Origin: a virus | IMG/VR virus record: IMGVR_UViG_3300043775_000777 | Span: 26,683-90,682 of that record | Length of the DNA: 64,000 bases | Direction: 5' to 3' (one strand) | Shown here: positions 36,757 to 53,596 of the stretch, piece after piece | How the letters are laid out: every line of letters starts with the position of its first letter | Position numbering within the stretch: the stretch's first letter is position 1 | The notes under the pieces: generated by a model | Told to the model about the DNA's origin: nothing | What the model saw: the letters and a program-made list of their open reading frames with translations, nothing else | Databases searched by the model: none | Program-made: the position numbers and the translations under genes

Positions 36757-37020
36757 TTATCTATCTTCATAACATTGCTGACACATATGTACTTCATCAC
36801 AAGTACATGTCAGTTCAGGGTTAATTGCATAGAGTCTTGCCATATCAGCAAACTCACTAGCAATCTCACCGTGCACCTGAAACTTAGGCTTAGGTGTAGT
36901 TACAGCTCTCTTAGCTCTAATAAGCATCTTGAGAGTATTCCGGAGATGATTAATGTCCATATCATCAACATTAATCTTCTGACCATTCTTCATAGTCCAG
37001 TAAACAGGTTCTTGAATCAT
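36757..37020 (-). CDS. Hypothetical protein with C-terminal Cys cluster
   Basis: WTMKNG...MDINHLRN; CxC...CxxC tail. Confidence 0.65.
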   Translation of the reverse strand: MIQEPVYWTMKNGQKINVDDMDINHLRNTLKMLIRAKRAVTTPKPKFQVHGEIASEFADMARLYAINPELTCTCDEVHMCQQCYEDR

Positions 37021-37169
37021 ATCAATAAAAGTTTAGTAGATAATATTTCTAGTTCTTCTTTATCAAATGATGTCTTAACCAATACAACATTGCTATTAGA
37101 CCAGTACTGTTTAAATTCTTGTTCTGTTTGGACCAATAATGTTCCACGGTGTTCAAATAAGTAATACAT
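37017..37169 (-). CDS. Small hypothetical protein (50 aa)
   Basis: Hand translation MYYLFEHRG...; ATGA overlap with the next gene. Confidence 0.55.
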   Translation of the reverse strand: MYYLFEHRGTLLVQTEQEFKQYWSNSNVVLVKTSFDKEELEILSTKLLLI

Positions 37170-37209
37170 AAGTTTAAGTTTTAAGTGAATAATAAATAAA
37201 ATAGGGGAA

Positions 37210-37524
37210 TCACTCCCCTATTTGTTCTAACACTGGCAGCTCATCATAATGATAGCTACTACTAGTAGTGTCTCGCATAACATTTAAATAGTTACAATAG
37301 TCTAATTCAGGATCAGAACTTACATAACCATTATCAATACACTGTGATGTATAGTCTTCATAACTAAGAATTTCTTCTTCTGTAGTAGACTCTACTATAT
37401 CAGCAATTTTTTGTTTAGCAAGTTCTTCAGTGCTATAAACACCAACTATACTAGTTTCAGGTTGACAATAATTATCATCTGTGTCACGTATGAATGTCCA
37501 AAAAACAATGTATACTTTCTTCAT
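37210..37524 (-). CDS. Hypothetical protein
   Basis: VYIV...IVGVYSTEELAK pattern; stop lies in the loop of the terminator at 37201-37221. Confidence 0.7.
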   Translation of the reverse strand: MKKVYIVFWTFIRDTDDNYCQPETSIVGVYSTEELAKQKIADIVESTTEEEILSYEDYTSQCIDNGYVSSDPELDYCNYLNVMRDTTSSSYHYDELPVLEQIGE

Positions 37525-37596
37525 AAGTTTATGTTTAAGTTTAGGTTTAAGTTTATAAAATAAGCAGTTTATAGTCCTGCTTAGGACTCACAAAGG

Positions 37597-37842
37597 TTAC
37601 TGATAGGCAGAAGACATAAATTTCCTTAAATAAGGAAATGTATATTCTTCATTAGTATGCCCTAATACAGTATGATTACCGGAAACACCATTTTTTACTT
37701 CATAAGTAGAAAAGATTTTATATTTCCAATAACCATAATCATTAACATACCAACCTTCATGGGTATCTTCTCCTACATTGTATTTAACTACATTGTTATC
37801 AAAGACAATCCATCTGCAATAATTTAATACTGTTTTTTCCAT
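37597..37842 (-). CDS. Hypothetical protein
   Basis: 81-aa ORF. Confidence 0.6.
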   Translation of the reverse strand: MEKTVLNYCRWIVFDNNVVKYNVGEDTHEGWYVNDYGYWKYKIFSTYEVKNGVSGNHTVLGHTNEEYTFPYLRKFMSSAYQ

Positions 37843-37869
37843 TCTAAGTATAAGTTTAAGTGAATAAAT

Positions 37870-38770
37870 AAAGTTTCTATAAGTTAATTAATACACCACA
37901 GTTATAAGATTACGTTCACTACCTCAACAGGTTTCCTCTTACAACTGCAATGTATTAATACCACAAGTCAACCCCTGCTTTACAGGATGAGGGGTTATGC
38001 CTGAAACCTTGTGGTTAAATCAGATTCATTAGGTACTATAACAGTAATAATAACAATAACAATATTATTATGACATTCCATAGCCTTTCATTGACCGGTC
38101 CGATCTGGTATTGCTACCCAGACAAATCTCCGGACTATGGCAGTTACAAAGTAACATTTATCTACCCTTGTAGTGATAATAAACTATCACTCTGTGAGCT
38201 GAATCTGAATGCTCAACAGAAACCCGGTTCTTACATACTGAATCTCTATGAACCGGGAAGTTAAAGAGTATTGTTATTAGGTATAACCCACCATTAGTTA
38301 TTCTAGGTGCTACAACACCACAGTAAACTAATAAACTGTAACAAAGGTAATGCCTATCTGCTGTGTTAACTATGCTAAACAATAGGACTTGTGACCGGAA
38401 ATTACTGCTTTCCCGGAAGCCTTTACTGTGCTCATCTAACTAATACTATATATAATAGTAGTAATAGTAGTGTATTACTGATTCTGTGTAATGCTAAGTC
38501 TATGATTAGCCATATACTTAGTATTGTATAAGCTTTCACAAGCATTCTGTGACTGTTTCTGTTGGTATAATAATGCTGAGAGTTTGTCACTCAACCCCAA
38601 ACTAACCTACATTCATTCACAGTTTGTTATTAATTACTGCACATATATTACACTATGGGTATCTTCATTCCCGGGGGTAGTATGCAATAACTGTGCACTT
38701 TAGTCTTGACCATTCAATCAGCGGTTGTTGACCGGTAGTTGACCGCTGAAACAGTCTAACTATTTTTTTT
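37870..38770 (-). ncRNA. Candidate large (~900 nt) structured non-coding RNA
   Basis: No convincing ORF; at least nine stems, including nested ones (37960/38015, 38078/38140, 38172/38191, 38223/38257, 38718/38749); GCAA tetraloop and G-U pairs favour the - strand; early motif variant at 38772-38783 directly upstream. Confidence 0.6.
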
Positions 38771-38883
38771 AAAATTAAAGTTGCTTAAAGCTATTGTCTG
38801 AAAGACAATTAAACACATAGTATATACTATGGCTTCACTAAAAATAATAAGGGTGTATTTCTACACCCCTATTATCCTTGAGA

Positions 38884-39288
38884 TTATATCCCAATTTCCT
38901 CAGATACCTCAACCTCCTCAAAGTCATCATCAGAATTCTCAGAAGCAACAACAAGGCTTGATAATGTGTACCAAGGTTTACGCGCAGTTCCATCAGCATT
39001 CTTGCTTCTAGAAACTTTACCTAAGTAGGTTTCCCCTACCTCCATACCTTGCTCATAGCTAGTACTATACACTACTATATCAGCTTTGGTGTGGCTGTTA
39101 CCATTATCATCAGTAAACCTGATAGTTGCTAACTTGTAGGTTAGGGTATCCCCGTTACCATTAGTGTAAGTGAACTCTTTATCACTTAATCTAACCAAGG
39201 TAGCCTTAATGTTGGCAACCTTTTGCACATTACCACTAGGTGTTGTTTCTTCCTTAAACACCAACGCAATCTTTTTCTTTTCAATCAT
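38884..39288 (-). CDS. Beta-rich protein with acidic tail (possible OB-fold/SSB-like)
   Basis: Alternating beta pattern; tail DDDFEEVEVSEEIGI. Confidence 0.55.
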   Translation of the reverse strand: MIEKKKIALVFKEETTPSGNVQKVANIKATLVRLSDKEFTYTNGNGDTLTYKLATIRFTDDNGNSHTKADIVVYSTSYEQGMEVGETYLGKVSRSKNADGTARKPWYTLSSLVVASENSDDDFEEVEVSEEIGI

Positions 39289-39406
39289 AACTTTTTGATT
39301 TTTGGGTTAATAATAATTTTCTTACAATAAAAGTTGCAAAAGGCTAAGCCGAAGGCTTCCAACACTGTCTGTTATTAACTCTCTCTCAGCTTAAATAAAA
39401 AGGGGA

Positions 39407-39619
39407 TTACTCCCCTAATTTATTTTCTGCTTGTGTTACAAGTGGCTCTATAATACCTTCTTGTATGTCATCTCTAAATGCTTTTAGAGTATCTATTGCT
39501 ATGCTAAGTTCATATTTATCATAAGAAATCAAATCACTATCTGTTTTTATGACTCTTTCATAAAGACTAATCTTTGCATTAAGCATTGCAATAATGTGTA
39601 ATACCGTTTCTGTGTCCAT
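39407..39619 (-). CDS. Early hypothetical protein (70 aa)
   Basis: Start MDTETV 18 nt after the motif; stop in terminator loop. Confidence 0.7.
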   Translation of the reverse strand: MDTETVLHIIAMLNAKISLYERVIKTDSDLISYDKYELSIAIDTLKAFRDDIQEGIIEPLVTQAENKLGE

Positions 39620-39686
39620 ATTATATAGTTTAAGATTAAATAAAAGTTGTCTGTGTAAATAGAAAGGGGAACAATGTCCCCTATAT

Positions 39687-40073
39687 CTATGGCTTAACAG
39701 GTGCTTCCAACAACTGAAACAAATCATCTTTGTCTAACAGTTTGTGTATGTCTGCCTGATATCTGTATAATTCAGTACGATATCTGTCCCAAGCACCATA
39801 ATCAGCACACACAAGTTTAAGTTTCAGAACATTAGCTTTGGATTCTTCATAATCTTTGGAATCCATACCAAGTTCTTTACTAGCATTAATCTGGCTATTC
39901 AACACGCCTATTGCAAAGACATATTGTTTATCAGAACTACCCTTGTCAATAGAAATGTTGTTGTTAACATAAATCTCAGGAATAGAATTTATTGATTCCA
40001 TTAATTGAGAACACATTTCTTGTGCAAATTCAAAATCTGCTTTTGCTTGTTTGTAAGCTTCTAACTTTTTCAT
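39687..40073 (-). CDS. Early hypothetical protein
   Basis: 128 aa, with motif and terminator. Confidence 0.7.
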   Translation of the reverse strand: MKKLEAYKQAKADFEFAQEMCSQLMESINSIPEIYVNNNISIDKGSSDKQYVFAIGVLNSQINASKELGMDSKDYEESKANVLKLKLVCADYGAWDRYRTELYRYQADIHKLLDKDDLFQLLEAPVKP

Positions 40074-40128
40074 AGTGTATATTTTAATATTTTATTTCAA
40101 TAAAAGTTGTAAAAAAATAAAGAGAGTA

Positions 40129-40275
40129 TTACACCCTCTCTATCTTTCTCTCCATATATAACTTTACATAGAGCTTTTCTAGTTTGTCTGAATCAACCAT
40201 ACTGTTCATTGCCTTAATAGCACTAAGCATAGTTTCATATTCTTCCCAACTAATTACAATAGTTACTTGTTCCAT
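40129..40275 (-). CDS. Early micro-protein (48 aa)
   Basis: Hand translation MEQVTIVISWEEYETML...KIERV; motif upstream, stop in hairpin. Confidence 0.65.
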   Translation of the reverse strand: MEQVTIVISWEEYETMLSAIKAMNSMVDSDKLEKLYVKLYMERKIERV

Positions 40276-40318
40276 AGTATATAATTTAGATTATATTAAA
40301 GTTGTTAAAAAGGGGATA

Positions 40319-40576
40319 TTACTCCCCTTCTTTCCAAGGTCTATACAGTCCTGATTCACAGATATTGTGTGCAAAAGAATTTAATTTCTTTTCAAAATCT
40401 TCAATATCAACTTCAGCATACCAACTTGTGCAATCTTTGTTAAATGATTCAAGAGCCTGTTTATATTTGTATGCTAAAAAATGATAGTCTATTCTTTTTT
40501 CTTCAGGATAACTGTGATAGTTTACTGAACGGTCTACCATACCTGATAGACTTTTAAATGCTTTTTCAAAGTTCAT
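40319..40576 (-). CDS. Early hypothetical protein
   Basis: 85 aa, with motif and terminator. Confidence 0.7.
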   Translation of the reverse strand: MNFEKAFKSLSGMVDRSVNYHSYPEEKRIDYHFLAYKYKQALESFNKDCTSWYAEVDIEDFEKKLNSFAHNICESGLYRPWKEGE

Positions 40577-40645
40577 ATTATATAGTTTTAATTTTCTTAA
40601 AATAAAAGTTGTTAAATGAAAAAGGGGATATAGTCCCCTTACTGA

Positions 40646-40714
40646 TTATCTCATTATGCGGTATTTAACATAACACAATAAGAATACAAATCCCCAAAGA
40701 ATTGCTGTTACCAT
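40646..40714 (-). CDS. 22-aa hydrophobic peptide
   Basis: MVTAILWGFVFLLCYVKYRIMR; has its own motif (40739) and terminator (40622). Confidence 0.55.
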   Translation of the reverse strand: MVTAILWGFVFLLCYVKYRIMR

Positions 40715-40790
40715 AGTTGTTAGTTTTAAATTTTAATAAAATAAAAGTTGCTATGTATAAATAAAAAGGGGGAATTTCTTCCCCCATAAA

Positions 40791-40973
40791 CTATACAACT
40801 AACAATGTATGTTCAGGGTGTATTATATGGTATTCTTCTACCAAACTATCCCTGTAAGCCTTTATCTCTTCTTCCGGCAATTGCTCAAATGCTTTTAACA
40901 TAGCTTTGTCAGCTTTTTTTCCTAATAAGATTAATATCCCATCAATCTCATCAATCATAAATTTTGTTATCAT
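40791..40973 (-). CDS. Early hypothetical protein
   Basis: 60 aa, with motif and terminator. Confidence 0.65.
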   Translation of the reverse strand: MITKFMIDEIDGILILLGKKADKAMLKAFEQLPEEEIKAYRDSLVEEYHIIHPEHTLLVV

Positions 40974-41021
40974 ATTGTATATATTTTTATTACAATAAAA
41001 GTTGAAATAAAAACTTAGGGA

Positions 41022-41210
41022 TTATCTCCCTAAGTCTTCATCATACTCAAATGTTCCGGTCTCTATGTATTCATAGATCTCATGCTTAGTAGCATAGTCT
41101 ACAACTTTGCCGTCTTCAAAGAACAGTGCATACTGTTTCCGGCCATCCATAGTCTGTTGATACTTAACTTGTCCTGTAAGTAACAACCAAATGAAAATAA
41201 CTTTTACCAT
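41022..41210 (-). CDS. Early hypothetical protein
   Basis: 62 aa, with motif and terminator. Confidence 0.65.
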   Translation of the reverse strand: MVKVIFIWLLLTGQVKYQQTMDGRKQYALFFEDGKVVDYATKHEIYEYIETGTFEYDEDLGR

Positions 41211-41255
41211 AATATATATTTCTAATGCAATAAAAGCTGTTTAAAAGAAGAAGGT

Positions 41256-41396
41256 TTATAAGCCTTCTTCTTCTTTATACTGTAGATATGATTCATATGC
41301 TGTTAAGCAATATGCATCATACTCTGCTTGTAATTCAGCACAAGAATTACAATGGTTTTCATCACCTAGTAAACAGGCACAAGTTGTATTTTCCAT
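41256..41396 (-). CDS. Early Cys-rich micro-protein (46 aa)
   Basis: MENTTCACLLGDENHCNSCAE...; CxC...CxxC. Confidence 0.6.
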   Translation of the reverse strand: MENTTCACLLGDENHCNSCAELQAEYDAYCLTAYESYLQYKEEEGL

Positions 41397-41443
41397 AATA
41401 TAAGTTTAGCACACAATAGAAGTTGTATTAAATAAAAAAGGAG

Positions 41444-41701
41444 CTATTGCTCCTTAATTATAATGTCTTTCAACCATTGGTTAATGAACTCTTCAGTTAC
41501 ATAACCTATTGGATCTTCCATACATCTAGTGTCCCACATTTCAAATGTAGTTACACCATCTCCTTTTAATCCAAATCCACCTCCTACAACACTAATCATT
41601 TCATCTTCATTAGGATATTGAAATGTCCAATGAGTTGCACCCGGTATTACACGGTGTGCCTTCCTGATAAAATCTTCAGGGAATCTTAATGCCTTTGTCA
41701 T
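41444..41701 (-). CDS. Early hypothetical protein
   Basis: 85 aa; ISVVGGGFGLKGDGVTTFEMW. Confidence 0.7.
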   Translation of the reverse strand: MTKALRFPEDFIRKAHRVIPGATHWTFQYPNEDEMISVVGGGFGLKGDGVTTFEMWDTRCMEDPIGYVTEEFINQWLKDIIIKEQ

Positions 41702-41753
41702 AATGTATAATTTATCATTAAATAAAAGCTGTTTAAATAAAAAAGAGCAAGGA

Positions 41754-41930
41754 TTATTCTCCCTGCTCTTTTACTCTACAAACATTAAACACAATGTATT
41801 CTCCCGCAGTATGTATCTCATATTTCTTGAGAATACCTTTGGTCATCCATTGATTCAATCTAGTTTGCATTTTAGTTAGTTCTCCTGCATCTGATGCAAG
41901 AAAACTATAAAGGTCAACACGTAGTTTCAT
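41754..41930 (-). CDS. Early micro-protein (58 aa)
   Basis: Hand translation MKLRVDLYSF...KEQGE. Confidence 0.65.
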   Translation of the reverse strand: MKLRVDLYSFLASDAGELTKMQTRLNQWMTKGILKKYEIHTAGEYIVFNVCRVKEQGE

Positions 41931-41995
41931 ATGTATAGTTTCTGTGGCAATAAAAGCTGAAAAATAAAAAGAGAGACATTGTCTCTCTCTTAATG

Positions 41996-42196
41996 CTATG
42001 CACCTTGTAGCTTTTCTTCTATGTGCATTATTAGGTTAAGCATTCCCATAATGGAGCAACCTGCTAATATAATACCCATAGTAATTAAACCTACCATTGG
42101 TGCAGTTGGTTCTACAGATAATACTCCGAAGAAGTATAAACAGAATGTGCCAAGGCCTGAAGCATATAGCACAATAAACTTAAGTAATTGTTTCAT
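41996..42196 (-). CDS. Early membrane protein (66 aa, 2 TM)
   Basis: Start MKQLLKF 18 nt after the motif at 42215. Confidence 0.65.
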   Translation of the reverse strand: MKQLLKFIVLYASGLGTFCLYFFGVLSVEPTAPMVGLITMGIILAGCSIMGMLNLIMHIEEKLQGA

Positions 42197-42327
42197 AGTA
42201 TATAATTTCTCATACAATAAAAGCTGTCTAACACAGAAAAAAAAGGGGATATCATCCCCTGTAGTGTTTAACTTTTCATAGCTTTTAGTTTTCATACAAT
42301 AAAAGCTGAATTAAAAAGCAATACAGG

Positions 42328-42510
42328 TTATTCCCCTGTATTACTTTCCATTGCTGATACAGCAGCTTCAATACCTTCTTGAACATAAGCTCTATATGCT
42401 TTTAAATCAGATAGCTCATATAGTTCTTTAAATGTCTTACCTTCTGTTTCTAAGGTAGCAATTGCTTTATCTAGCGTTTCAGCTAAATCAAATAGTTGGT
42501 TTGCAGTCAT
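42328..42510 (-). CDS. Early hypothetical protein (60 aa), first gene of the leftward unit
   Basis: Start MTANQL 18 nt after the motif at 42529. Confidence 0.65.
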   Translation of the reverse strand: MTANQLFDLAETLDKAIATLETEGKTFKELYELSDLKAYRAYVQEGIEAAVSAMESNTGE

Positions 42511-42544
42511 AGTTATTAGTTTCTCATACAATAGAAGTTGTGCT

Positions 42545-42835
42545 ATATACTGTCTTCTCTGTGTGTGTGGTTGGTGTGCTGCCTCGGTTGTCTCAGCACC
42601 CTCCCCCCTCTGTGTCATAGTCTTCTGCTTAGCTTTTGCATCTGTTGTCTCTGCTTTGTTCTGTCTCTGCTAGCATCCACACACTTTTCCTGTGTCAGAG
42701 TTTTTTAGATTTTTTCCTAGATTCAGGCTTGCTCCCTCAGCTTCATAGGGGGTATGCCACTTTTTTTCAGAGCCCCGGGGGTTTTTGCTATATGCCCCAT
42801 CTCACACTCTTATATACTACAACTTAATTATCTTA
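42545..42835. other. Non-coding strand-switch region with strong base skew; possible genome end or packaging region
   Basis: The + strand is A-poor and CT/GT-rich with G/C runs (GGGGGT, CCCCGGGGG); it separates leftward from rightward transcription. Confidence 0.4.
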
Positions 42836-42874: not shown

Positions 42875-43115
42875 GAGCTAATAACTTTCATTTTAGGATT
42901 AATACTAAAAGCCCCGGAGCTACAGTCTGGGGTTTTTTAATAAGTGTGCCCCCCTGTGTTGAGATAGACATAGGCCAAGTTCCAGACAGCATACCGTAAG
43001 ATCTGCTCACTACACTGGACTTTTTGGTTACTGGGAAAGCATGGTACCAACATGTATAACTAGTAACAACCCCAGATAAGTTTCTCTGATCAAGAAATAC
43101 TGTCTGGGTTTTTTT
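42875..43115 (+). ncRNA. Candidate structured small RNA(s)
   Basis: Downstream of the promoter with no ORF; stems 42977/43022, 43027/43067 and 43071/43108, with U-tracts at ~42935 and 43109-15. Confidence 0.4.
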
Positions 43116-46075: not shown

Positions 46076-46208
46076 TACTCTGTCATCTCCTTTTCCGCAA
46101 TAACTTGTTAACCTGTTAAGCAACTTAATCCTCAGTTTTTTAACTGGGGATTTTTTTATATCAAATATTTTTTGTATATTATAGTGTATATTTATAAAAA
46201 CAATAATC

Positions 46209-53565: not shown

Positions 53566-53596
53566 AATCCAGGTATGTTCTATGCCTGGATTTTTT
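53566..53596 (+). terminator. Intrinsic terminator
   Basis: AATCCAGG/CCTGGATT stem plus U-tract. Confidence 0.75.

Follow-up and report, generated by a model that had tools for sequence, protein, structure and literature searches.

The window analysed here is the whole 64,000-nucleotide stretch, which derives from the 115-kb genome of a freshwater crAss-like phage. On its minus strand, 15 hairpins and 15 copies of the motif CARCTTTTATTG, the presumed promoter of each unit, are packed into an array of 5.3 kb. Each of the 15 hairpins is G+C-rich, with a U-tract directly downstream of it on the transcribed strand, every one lies at a gene end, and the promoter motif of the next unit mostly starts 7-18 nt further on. 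This composition and placement are those of intrinsic (Rho-independent) terminators, and the hairpins are predicted to act as such; both termination there and the identity of the polymerase are inferred. A terminator scan of positions 36900-42700 found 21 terminator-like sites, compared with 2.2 +/- 1.6 in shuffled sequences. The features of the array are listed below, with the predicted terminators written as stem-loop-stem and the protein tails as the last residues before the stop (*).

37199..37223, minus strand: terminator ATAGGGGA-GTGAT-TCCCCTAT (longer form AAATAGGGGA-GTGAT-TCCCCTATTT); stop TGA 37210-37212 of gene 37210-37524 in the loop; tail EQIGE*
38844..38875, minus strand: terminator with a GAAA loop, core stem 38851-38868, no stop overlap; stop of gene 38884-39288 (minus strand) 15 nt upstream of the core stem
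39401..39416, minus strand: terminator AGGGGA-GTAA-TCCCCT; stop TAA 39407-39409 of gene 39407-39619 at loop positions 2-4; tail NKLGE*
39665..39682, minus strand: terminator GGGGAC-ATT-GTTCCC; stop of gene 39687-40073 5 nt upstream
40121..40139, minus strand: terminator AGAGGGT-GTAAT-ACTCTCT; stop TAA 40129-40131 of gene 40129-40275 in the loop; tail KIERV*
40310..40329, minus strand: terminator AAGGGGA-GTAATA-TCCCCTT; stop TAA 40319-40321 of gene 40319-40576 in the loop; tail WKEGE*
40622..40640, minus strand: terminator AAGGGGA-CTATA-TCCCCTT, core stem 40624-40638; stop of a 22-codon membrane-type mini-gene (40646-40714, minus strand) 5 nt before the span and 7 nt before the core stem
40768..40785, minus strand: terminator GGGGGAA-GAAA-TTCCCCC; stop of gene 40791-40973 5 nt upstream
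41014..41034, minus strand: terminator CTTAGGGA-GATAA-TCCCTAAG; stop TAA 41022-41024 of gene 41022-41210 in the loop; tail EDLGR*
41247..41270, minus strand: terminator GAAGAAGG-CTTATAAA-CCTTCTTC; stop TAA 41256-41258 of gene 41256-41396 in the loop; tail EEEGL*
41438..41455, minus strand: terminator AAGGAGC-AATA-GCTCCTT; stop TAG 41444-41446 of gene 41444-41701 made up of the final two bases of the loop and the base that opens the 3' arm; tail IIKEQ*
41741..41772, minus strand: terminator AAGAGCAGGGA-GAATAA-TCCTTGCTCTT (longer form AAAAGAGCAGGGA-GAATAA-TCCTTGCTCTTTT); stop TAA 41754-41756 of gene 41754-41930 in the loop; tail KEQGE*
41967..41991, minus strand: terminator AAGAGAGAGAC-AAT-GTCTCTCTTTT; stop of gene 41996-42196 8 nt upstream of the core stem
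42244..42260, minus strand: mini-unit terminator AGGGGAT-GAT-ATCCCCT; a 12-codon ORF from 42295 (minus strand) reads through it without an in-frame stop
42318..42344, minus strand: terminator GTAATACAGG-GGAATAA-CCTGTATTGC; stop TAA 42328-42330 of gene 42328-42510 in the loop; tail SNTGE*
38772..42540, minus strand: 15 copies of the presumed promoter motif, with first bases at 42540, 42308, 42226, 41959, 41731, 41425, 41239, 41004, 40750, 40611, 40304, 40109, 39649, 39336 and 38783

Reading of the minus strand confirmed, for all nine genes named in the earlier note, that the stop codon lies in the hairpin loop or at its 3' edge and that a U-tract follows. These overlapping-stop units are of 46-104 codons each; in the loop class, the median hairpin energy is -8.1 kcal/mol. 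The six remaining terminators lie 5-15 nt past a stop, apart from the one that follows the stop-less mini-ORF. The promoter motif stands after a hairpin in 12 of its 15 copies, starting 7-18 nt past it, and its end lies 17-24 nt upstream of the ATG in 13 of 15; for the copy at 39336 the distance to the ATG of gene 38884-39288 is 36 nt, and that at 38783 stands at the head of a non-coding stretch without an ATG. The array genes had no informative PHROG or Pfam match, the only hit being a borderline one of gene 37210-37524 to DUF7336; a megablast comparison of the array with GenBank phages gave no match, and Rfam returned nothing significant. Assembled contigs from lake and river metatranscriptomes mainly covered the neighbouring non-coding RNA and gene 38884-39288, and the array was present in none of the public RNA runs.

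Stops within terminators are a property of the array and not of the genome at large. The stop fell within the terminator at 9 of 15 sites in the array, compared with none of the 12 gene-end terminators elsewhere in the genome (Fisher p = 0.001), where the gap between stop and hairpin was 4-54 nt; the earlier observation that the replication and late terminators lie downstream of the stops therefore holds. In related lake and river phage contigs (71 loci), overlap was found at 58 of 144 terminators on the array strand (40%) and at 3 of 40 on the other strand (7%). With control sets that were seeded on one stem type and had genes called by a simple ORF rule, overlap occurred in 15 of 116 cases (about 13%; p = 1.4e-4 against the array) in unrelated phage contigs, and stops lay in terminator loops in 35% of the set seeded on a stop-bearing hairpin. 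In the early and middle region of phage phi14:2, none of three gene-end terminators overlapped a stop, so the geometry does not appear to be general to Crassvirales, as far as this small sample goes. Overlap reached 51-68% in genes of up to 100 aa and was 0% above 140 aa, although this length effect was weak per family (p = 0.09) and absent in the control phages.

The geometry is inherited: it is kept in orthologues while the stems covary and the tail residues drift. A stop in the loop was retained in 65 of 80 distinct orthologue ends (81%). In the family of gene 41754-41930 it was present in 22 of 22 members, with differing stems; since the MAFFT alignment of this family was poor, the hairpins of individual sequences were used rather than the consensus fold, in which five of six pairs showed two-sided changes. 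Two candidate explanations were discarded. Loop-class genes are not younger or rarer than the others, both classes having the same number of loci per family, and turnover alone therefore does not account for the enrichment. Nor is the loop stop enriched as a back-up for a real stop upstream (20 of 45 in frame, 15 expected).

Comparison of the window with the related loci L007 and L008 revealed how the units change. The relatives differ by insertion, loss and permutation of units and by ORF replacement, with breakpoints at hairpins, U-tracts and promoters. In L008, an unrelated 87-aa ORF occupies the slot of gene 40319-40576 and the tiny unit preceding it, and identity with the window restarts exactly at AA(A/G)GGGGAGTAA; it is at the 40310..40329 hairpin that identity with both L008 and L007 resumes past the unrelated ORF. 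Unit order is swapped in L007, one unit indel is edged by TCCCCTTTnTATTT, and the indel of the gene 39407-39619 unit relative to L007 has as one of its ends the 3' arm and U-tract of the 39665..39682 terminator. The earlier proposal that new cassettes arise by fusing an ORF onto a standard terminator is partly borne out, in modified form, in that the terminator, the last two codons and the stop act as a module; it covers only part of the changes, as whole units also travel with their own terminator. A systematic search for unrelated ORFs sharing one junction yielded one clean case between genomes and two weak pairs within a locus, and only this one clean case of an ORF swapped onto a resident terminator was found. 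The EEQ/KEQ pair was rejected as a further case, the whole unit having arrived with its own identical terminator.

This arrangement resembles the promoter-early stem-loops (PeSLs) of T4-type phages (Arbiol et al. 2010, PMC2839356; Comeau et al. 2014, PMC4122927), which have GGGG..CCCC stems with crossovers in the loop (PMC2839356). In both systems, composite elements of promoter and stem-loop terminator, typically with GGGG..CCCC stems, are repeated around small ORFans in a hyperplastic region; ORFs are inserted, deleted or replaced between close relatives, and the crossovers fall inside the stem-loop or next to it. However, a PeSL is a sigma-70-like early promoter of a T4-type phage, with the stem-loop usually within the promoter and the stop in an AT-rich stretch upstream (PMC2839356). 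The array phage is a freshwater crAss-like phage, its promoter motif CARCTTTTATTG is not sigma-70-like, and its hairpins precede the promoter at variable spacing and overlap the upstream gene, with the stop in the loop.

Given these features, we consider it probable that the overlap is a by-product of tight packing and of unit shuffling at the terminators of one-gene units, and no special signal. Each unit would consist of a private promoter motif, a short ORFan gene and a hairpin with a U-tract, the units following one another head to tail, and the terminator, U-tract and promoter junctions are the sites at which units are inserted, lost or permuted or receive a new ORF body. The overlap may cost nothing if the first ribosome still trails the polymerase at some distance when the terminator is transcribed; such units are very short, and the polymerase that transcribes them may be a phage enzyme or uncoupled in some other way. 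Under such cost-free overlap, packing and junction recombination would therefore drive stops into loops. Terminators a few nt past stops are a mark of uncoupled transcription (PMC7858274). In the runaway transcription of Bacillus subtilis (Johnson et al. 2020), at least as summarised in PMC7858274 and PMC12207403, terminators likewise fall inside the stretch that a ribosome at the stop would cover, a placement that can be tolerated only where the ribosome stays behind the polymerase; the difference is that here a single phage gene array is concerned, with the stop inside the loop in 40-60% of cases.

If ribosomes did keep pace, a ribosome at the loop stop could melt the hairpin and allow read-through into the next unit, and translation shut-off would restore termination. 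The geometry itself speaks for such a translation-sensing attenuator, since a ribosome terminating at a stop inside the loop, or at one 5-8 nt ahead of the stem, would cover the 5' arm, and the conservation of this geometry in 81% of orthologue ends points the same way. In Escherichia coli, moreover, a ribosome near the stop represses the terminator, and moving the stop to 5 bp before tR2 lowered termination from about 90% to less than 10% (Li et al. 2016, PMC4824070). The physical conflict between ribosome and terminator is the same in the array, and some natural terminators overlap upstream genes (PMC4824070), but that work relied on lambda tR2 in an engineered reporter, in which the gene is long and translation is coupled, whereas the array consists of natural units of 46-104 codons, each with its own promoter. 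This length is about the distance, 100-200 nt, that the ribosome needs to catch the polymerase (PMC4824070). An ORF over a terminator hairpin is also found in leader-peptide attenuation of the pyrBI type; there, however, the regulated genes have no promoter of their own and a pause site synchronises ribosome and polymerase, whereas in the array the downstream genes have their own promoters and the ORFs encode conserved proteins rather than leader peptides. Neither a pause site nor an alternative structure was found. Because each unit has its own promoter 7-18 nt past the hairpin, read-through is unnecessary for expression; considering also that terminators at a tight 5-9 nt spacing from the stop are the general mode in unrelated phages and that overlap is commonest in the shortest genes, we regard attenuation as unlikely. 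It is improbable, too, that the stop-in-loop terminators are selected translation-sensitive insulators between early units, which let transcription run on as long as ribosomes keep up and confine transcripts strictly to one gene when host translation fails, or that early mRNA is kept short-lived by the melting of its protective 3' hairpin in every round of translation.

Pure compact-genome chance, with overlap no commoner than tight packing alone yields, is quite unlikely. To judge from both control sets, a stop within a terminator loop is no rarity among phages, and the literature describes overlaps of terminators with genes (PMC4824070); nevertheless, the frequencies of 60% in the array and 40% on the clade array strand exceed those of the unrelated control and of the other strand (p = 1e-4 to 1e-6), and the geometry persists in orthologues. 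It is very unlikely that, rather than serving as terminators, the hairpins work chiefly at the level of DNA or as parts of a promoter, for example as N4-type hairpin promoters or recombination sites. The crAss-like virion RNA polymerase does transcribe denatured DNA in vitro (bioRxiv 10.1101/2020.03.07.982082), breakpoints between relatives fall within hairpins, and the PeSL authors speculated on a protein targeting GGGG..CCCC stems (PMC2839356). However, a U-tract follows every hairpin, the spacing from hairpin to motif varies from 7 to 18 nt, and some hairpins (37199, 38844) lack a promoter, just as some promoters (42540, 39336) lack a hairpin.

Five of the proteins end in GE, as had been noted (IGE, LGE, EGE, QGE, TGE); genes 42328-42510 and 39407-39619, both with this ending, are paralogues (34% identity), so that the GE tails represent four independent cases and not five. 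Across the loop-class families, 14 of 34 have a GE tail and 25 of 34 a G at position -2, and in the prevailing layout the stop takes up loop positions 2-4. In the array, the last two to four codons make up the purine-rich 5' arm, and the loop is usually a tetraloop, N-TAA or N-TAG, with the stop at its positions 2-4. The GE tail arises where the commonest stem, GGGGA, together with the first base of a G-TAA tetraloop, is read GGG-GAG-TAA; a stem ending in GGGGT gives a GV tail, and a T-TAA loop a GD tail. In IMG/VR there are 106 exact copies of the terminator GGGGAGTAATCCCCTTTT; its loop TAA serves as the in-frame stop in 57 and is entered in another frame in one. ORFs running into such a hairpin nearly always meet their stop in the loop. 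Within families, the stem covaries while the tail residues change freely: the tails of one orthologue family are KGA, EGE, EQE, KDA and SEE, in another the tail changes from E to V when GGGGA..TCCCC becomes GGGGT..ACCCC, and covarying stems with differing tails include KEGE, KGE and NIGV. The suggestion that GE is a functional C-terminal tag is therefore hardly credible, for although it is the commonest tail and also ends many unrelated IMG/VR ORFs, its residues are not kept independently of the nucleotide constraint but alter in step with compensatory changes in the stem (E to V, G to D), no gene whose stop precedes the hairpin ends in GE, and some orthologues lack the tail altogether (e.g., NEDLK-TAA-GGG-GAG-TAA). 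The tail itself probably has no function.

In a widespread clade of lake phages, terminator RNA and not protein function would thus determine how dozens of small early proteins end, which calls for caution in reading conserved C-terminal 'motifs' in phage ORFans. PeSL-like modular shuffling is also extended from T4-type to crAss-like phages. Given an overlap of 60% in the array and none in the rest of the same genome, the two gene sets are predicted to differ in their polymerase-ribosome regimes, and the array may serve as a natural test bed for whether early phage transcription is coupled to translation in uncultured phages.

The parent IMG/VR phage record comprises 115,433 bases, of which the window covers 26683-90682, and is rated 97% complete. 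Its terminase, portal and DNA polymerase had only distant matches, at approximately 25% identity, to crAss-like and Flavobacterium phages; DNA near-identical to this phage is contained in many lake-water metagenomes of 2016-2024. Gene orientation is leftward from 42618 to 9400 and rightward from 43128. On the minus strand, 37199-42540 is taken up by one-gene units in a row (the array). Each unit has a short gene of 22-134 codons followed by a hairpin with a U-tract, and 7-18 nt separate the hairpin from the next copy of the motif CARCTTTTATTG, the presumed promoter. The motif has 15 copies and in this form is confined to the array. In 13 of the 15, the distance from the motif end to the ATG is 17-24 nt; for the copy at 39336 it is 36 nt, to the ATG of the gene with its stop at 38884, and the copy at 38783 heads a non-coding stretch. 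Searches of PHROGs and Pfam gave no informative family match for the array genes. The following features lie in or near the array:

37870-38783, minus strand: large non-coding stretch, beginning at the motif copy at 38783
39340-39362, minus strand: small GAAGCC-TTCG-GCTT hairpin (UUCG-type loop) directly upstream of the promoter motif of the gene ending at 38884, in the position held by the preceding terminator in other units
39410-39619 and 42331-42510, minus strand: paralogous genes (34% identity over 70 aa), two of the window's five whose proteins end in GE
40646-40714, minus strand: hydrophobic mini-gene of 22 codons (MVTAILWGFVFLLCYVKYRIMR) with its own promoter motif and terminator, missing in the related locus L008
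42244-42308, minus strand: mini-unit with promoter motif, ATG at 42295 and 12 codons (MKTKSYEKLNTTGDD…) that read through the terminator hairpin
42912-42932, 46130-46149 and 53569-53589, plus strand: rightward-arm terminators

Within the region, metatranscriptome contigs from rivers and lakes cover the non-coding stretch best; over 37940-38328 the depth was 28 in one run and 10 in another, and the 389 nt contained 1 mismatch. Early non-coding RNAs are likewise abundant in phage phi14:2 (bioRxiv 10.1101/2020.03.07.982082). The ORF of the mini-unit at 42244-42308 has no in-frame stop, and its frame continues into the next gene, which ends at 41996. Its end, NTTGD, resembles the SNTGE of the gene ending at 42328, and the unit is kept in loci L008-L010 at 98% identity. 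It could represent either a leader or a unit that was emptied.

The earlier note placed nine stops (37210, 39407, 40129, 40319, 41022, 41256, 41444, 41754 and 42328) in or at the edge of terminator loops and read GE at the end of five proteins. Inspection of the predicted minus-strand terminators confirmed the five GE ends and located all nine stops in the hairpin loop, one of them, a TAG, extending from the loop one base into the 3' arm. An independent terminator scan of the region found 21 terminator-like sites, against 2.2 expected. A stop is held by 9 of the 15 array terminators; the remaining six lie 5-15 nt after the stop or, for one mini-unit, have no in-frame stop. In the rest of the genome, none of 12 gene-end terminators overlaps a stop (gaps of 4-54 nt; Fisher p = 0.001). 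The 5' arm is purine-rich in all array terminators and mostly C-rich in those of the rightward arm (CCCCGGA, CCTCAGTT, CCAGGTAT), which lie 24-54 nt downstream of the stop where an upstream stop is assignable.

Background frequency was determined in unrelated IMG/VR contigs seeded on a GAAA-loop terminator, whose loop cannot hold a stop, by counting their other terminators. With gene calls from a simple ORF rule, terminator calls from a strict hairpin rule and one stem type common to the background sets, the stop lay in the loop at 15 of 116 terminators (13%), and the most frequent gap was 5-9 nt. The array thus exceeds this background approximately 4-5-fold (9/15 versus 15/116, p = 1.4e-4), and stop-in-loop geometry as such is an ordinary minority arrangement in phages. 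Hairpins with the stop in the loop were slightly weaker than the others (-8.1 versus -9.6 kcal/mol, p = 0.004), as would be expected if double coding is costly.

The GE tail can be traced to the hairpin. In the commonest layout (36 of 78 cases) the stop occupies tetraloop positions 2-4, so that the final two bases of the 5' arm, together with the first base of the loop, make up the last sense codon. A G-TAA loop on GGGGA, the commonest stem, then reads GGG-GAG-TAA, or Gly-Glu-stop; GD results from a T-TAA loop and GV from a GGGGT stem. Among 34 families with the stop in the loop, GE is the ending of 14, and 25 carry G at position -2. IMG/VR contains 106 exact copies of the terminator GGGGAGTAATCCCCTTTT. 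An ORF of ≥30 codons terminates at the loop TAA in 57 cases, 28 of them in loci without protein similarity to this phage; no such ORF reaches the TAA in 48, and an ORF enters in another frame in only one. These counts (57 versus 1) indicate that an ORF entering such a hairpin must terminate within the loop; without a stop there it would presumably continue past the transcript end. The terminator was found in 97 viral-contig stretches (loci L084-L179), including 230-380 kb contigs unrelated to this phage, and its TAA gives many unrelated upstream proteins a GE end.

Comparison with close relatives showed that the pieces that move are whole units. L008 has an unrelated 87-aa ORF in place of both the tiny membrane-gene unit and the body of the gene ending at 40319; identity restarts exactly at AA(A/G)GGGGAGTAA and is 98% downstream. 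This swap, with identity restarting at the hairpin, partly supports the suggestion that new ORFs are fused onto a standard terminator, but units also move whole, with their own hairpin. In the slot of the gene ending at 41444, L008 carries an unrelated 66-aa ORF with the identical GGAGC-AATA-GCTCC hairpin, and since relatives of this ORF elsewhere also have that hairpin, the whole unit moved there. In L007, another relative, the units ending at 41256 and 41444 are in reversed order, and the unit ending at 39407 is absent, with the junction within a TCCCCTTTnTATTT segment common to two terminators.

It was also proposed that a ribosome at the stop melts the hairpin and makes termination translation-dependent. 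This has a sound physical basis: placing a stop 5 bp ahead of a terminator in E. coli cuts termination from approximately 90% to <10% through ribosome blocking of the hairpin (PMC4824070). However, the first ribosome catches the polymerase only after 100-200 nt (PMC4824070), a distance comparable to the length of the units (46-104 codons), each of which has its own presumed promoter. Tight stop-terminator spacing is moreover general in phages, and terminators a few nucleotides from stops are reviewed as a mark of uncoupled transcription (PMC7858274). Overlap fell with gene length, from 51-68% at ≤100 aa through 24% at 101-140 aa to 0% in genes of >140 aa, although per family this was only a trend (p = 0.09). 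Such an attenuator is thus unlikely, and we interpret the overlap as one that is tolerated but not exploited. At the time of hairpin folding, the ribosome would not be close behind the polymerase; stops would be driven into loops by packing and by recombination at junctions, and the overlap would then persist for want of room to shift the hairpin. In phi14:2, a virion polymerase transcribes early genes and the host enzyme later genes (bioRxiv 10.1101/2020.03.07.982082); the same division here would account for the difference of the array from other parts of the genome.

Through a conserved neighbouring gene (57-96% protein identity), 71 related loci were collected. The stop is contained in 58 of 144 distinct gene-end terminators on the array strand, compared with 3 of 40 on the opposite strand, and 65 of 80 distinct ends of the nine genes' orthologues fold into a hairpin whose loop includes the stop; the observation is thus confirmed and extended to the whole clade. 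In the family of the gene ending at 41754, all 22 ends do so despite differing stems (GGAGC/GCTCC, GATGC/GCATC, GAACAGGA/TCCTGTTC, CAGAGGA/TCCTCTG and others), with tails KGA, KDA, EQE, QGE, SEE, EEA and KAE. In the 40319 family, GGGGA..TCCCC becomes GGGGT..ACCCC and the last residue changes from E to V. The pairing is the conserved element and the tail residues follow it, so the idea that GE is a functional tag is rejected. Two orthologues of the gene ending at 41022 (L130, L172) have a transitional form, …NEDLK-TAA-GGG-GAG-TAA, in which a new stop adjoins the hairpin and the old loop stop is still in frame; one substitution can thus suffice for the gain or loss of a GE tail.

The shuffling of the array agrees with that of the promoter-early stem-loop (PeSL) elements known from T4-type phages, in which stems are GGGG..CCCC and crossovers fall within the loop (PMC2839356). 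The stop precedes the element in PeSLs, however, whereas in nine of the array genes it is inside the hairpin loop. The array is a variant of gene-overlapping intrinsic terminators and PeSL-like units, both of which were already known.
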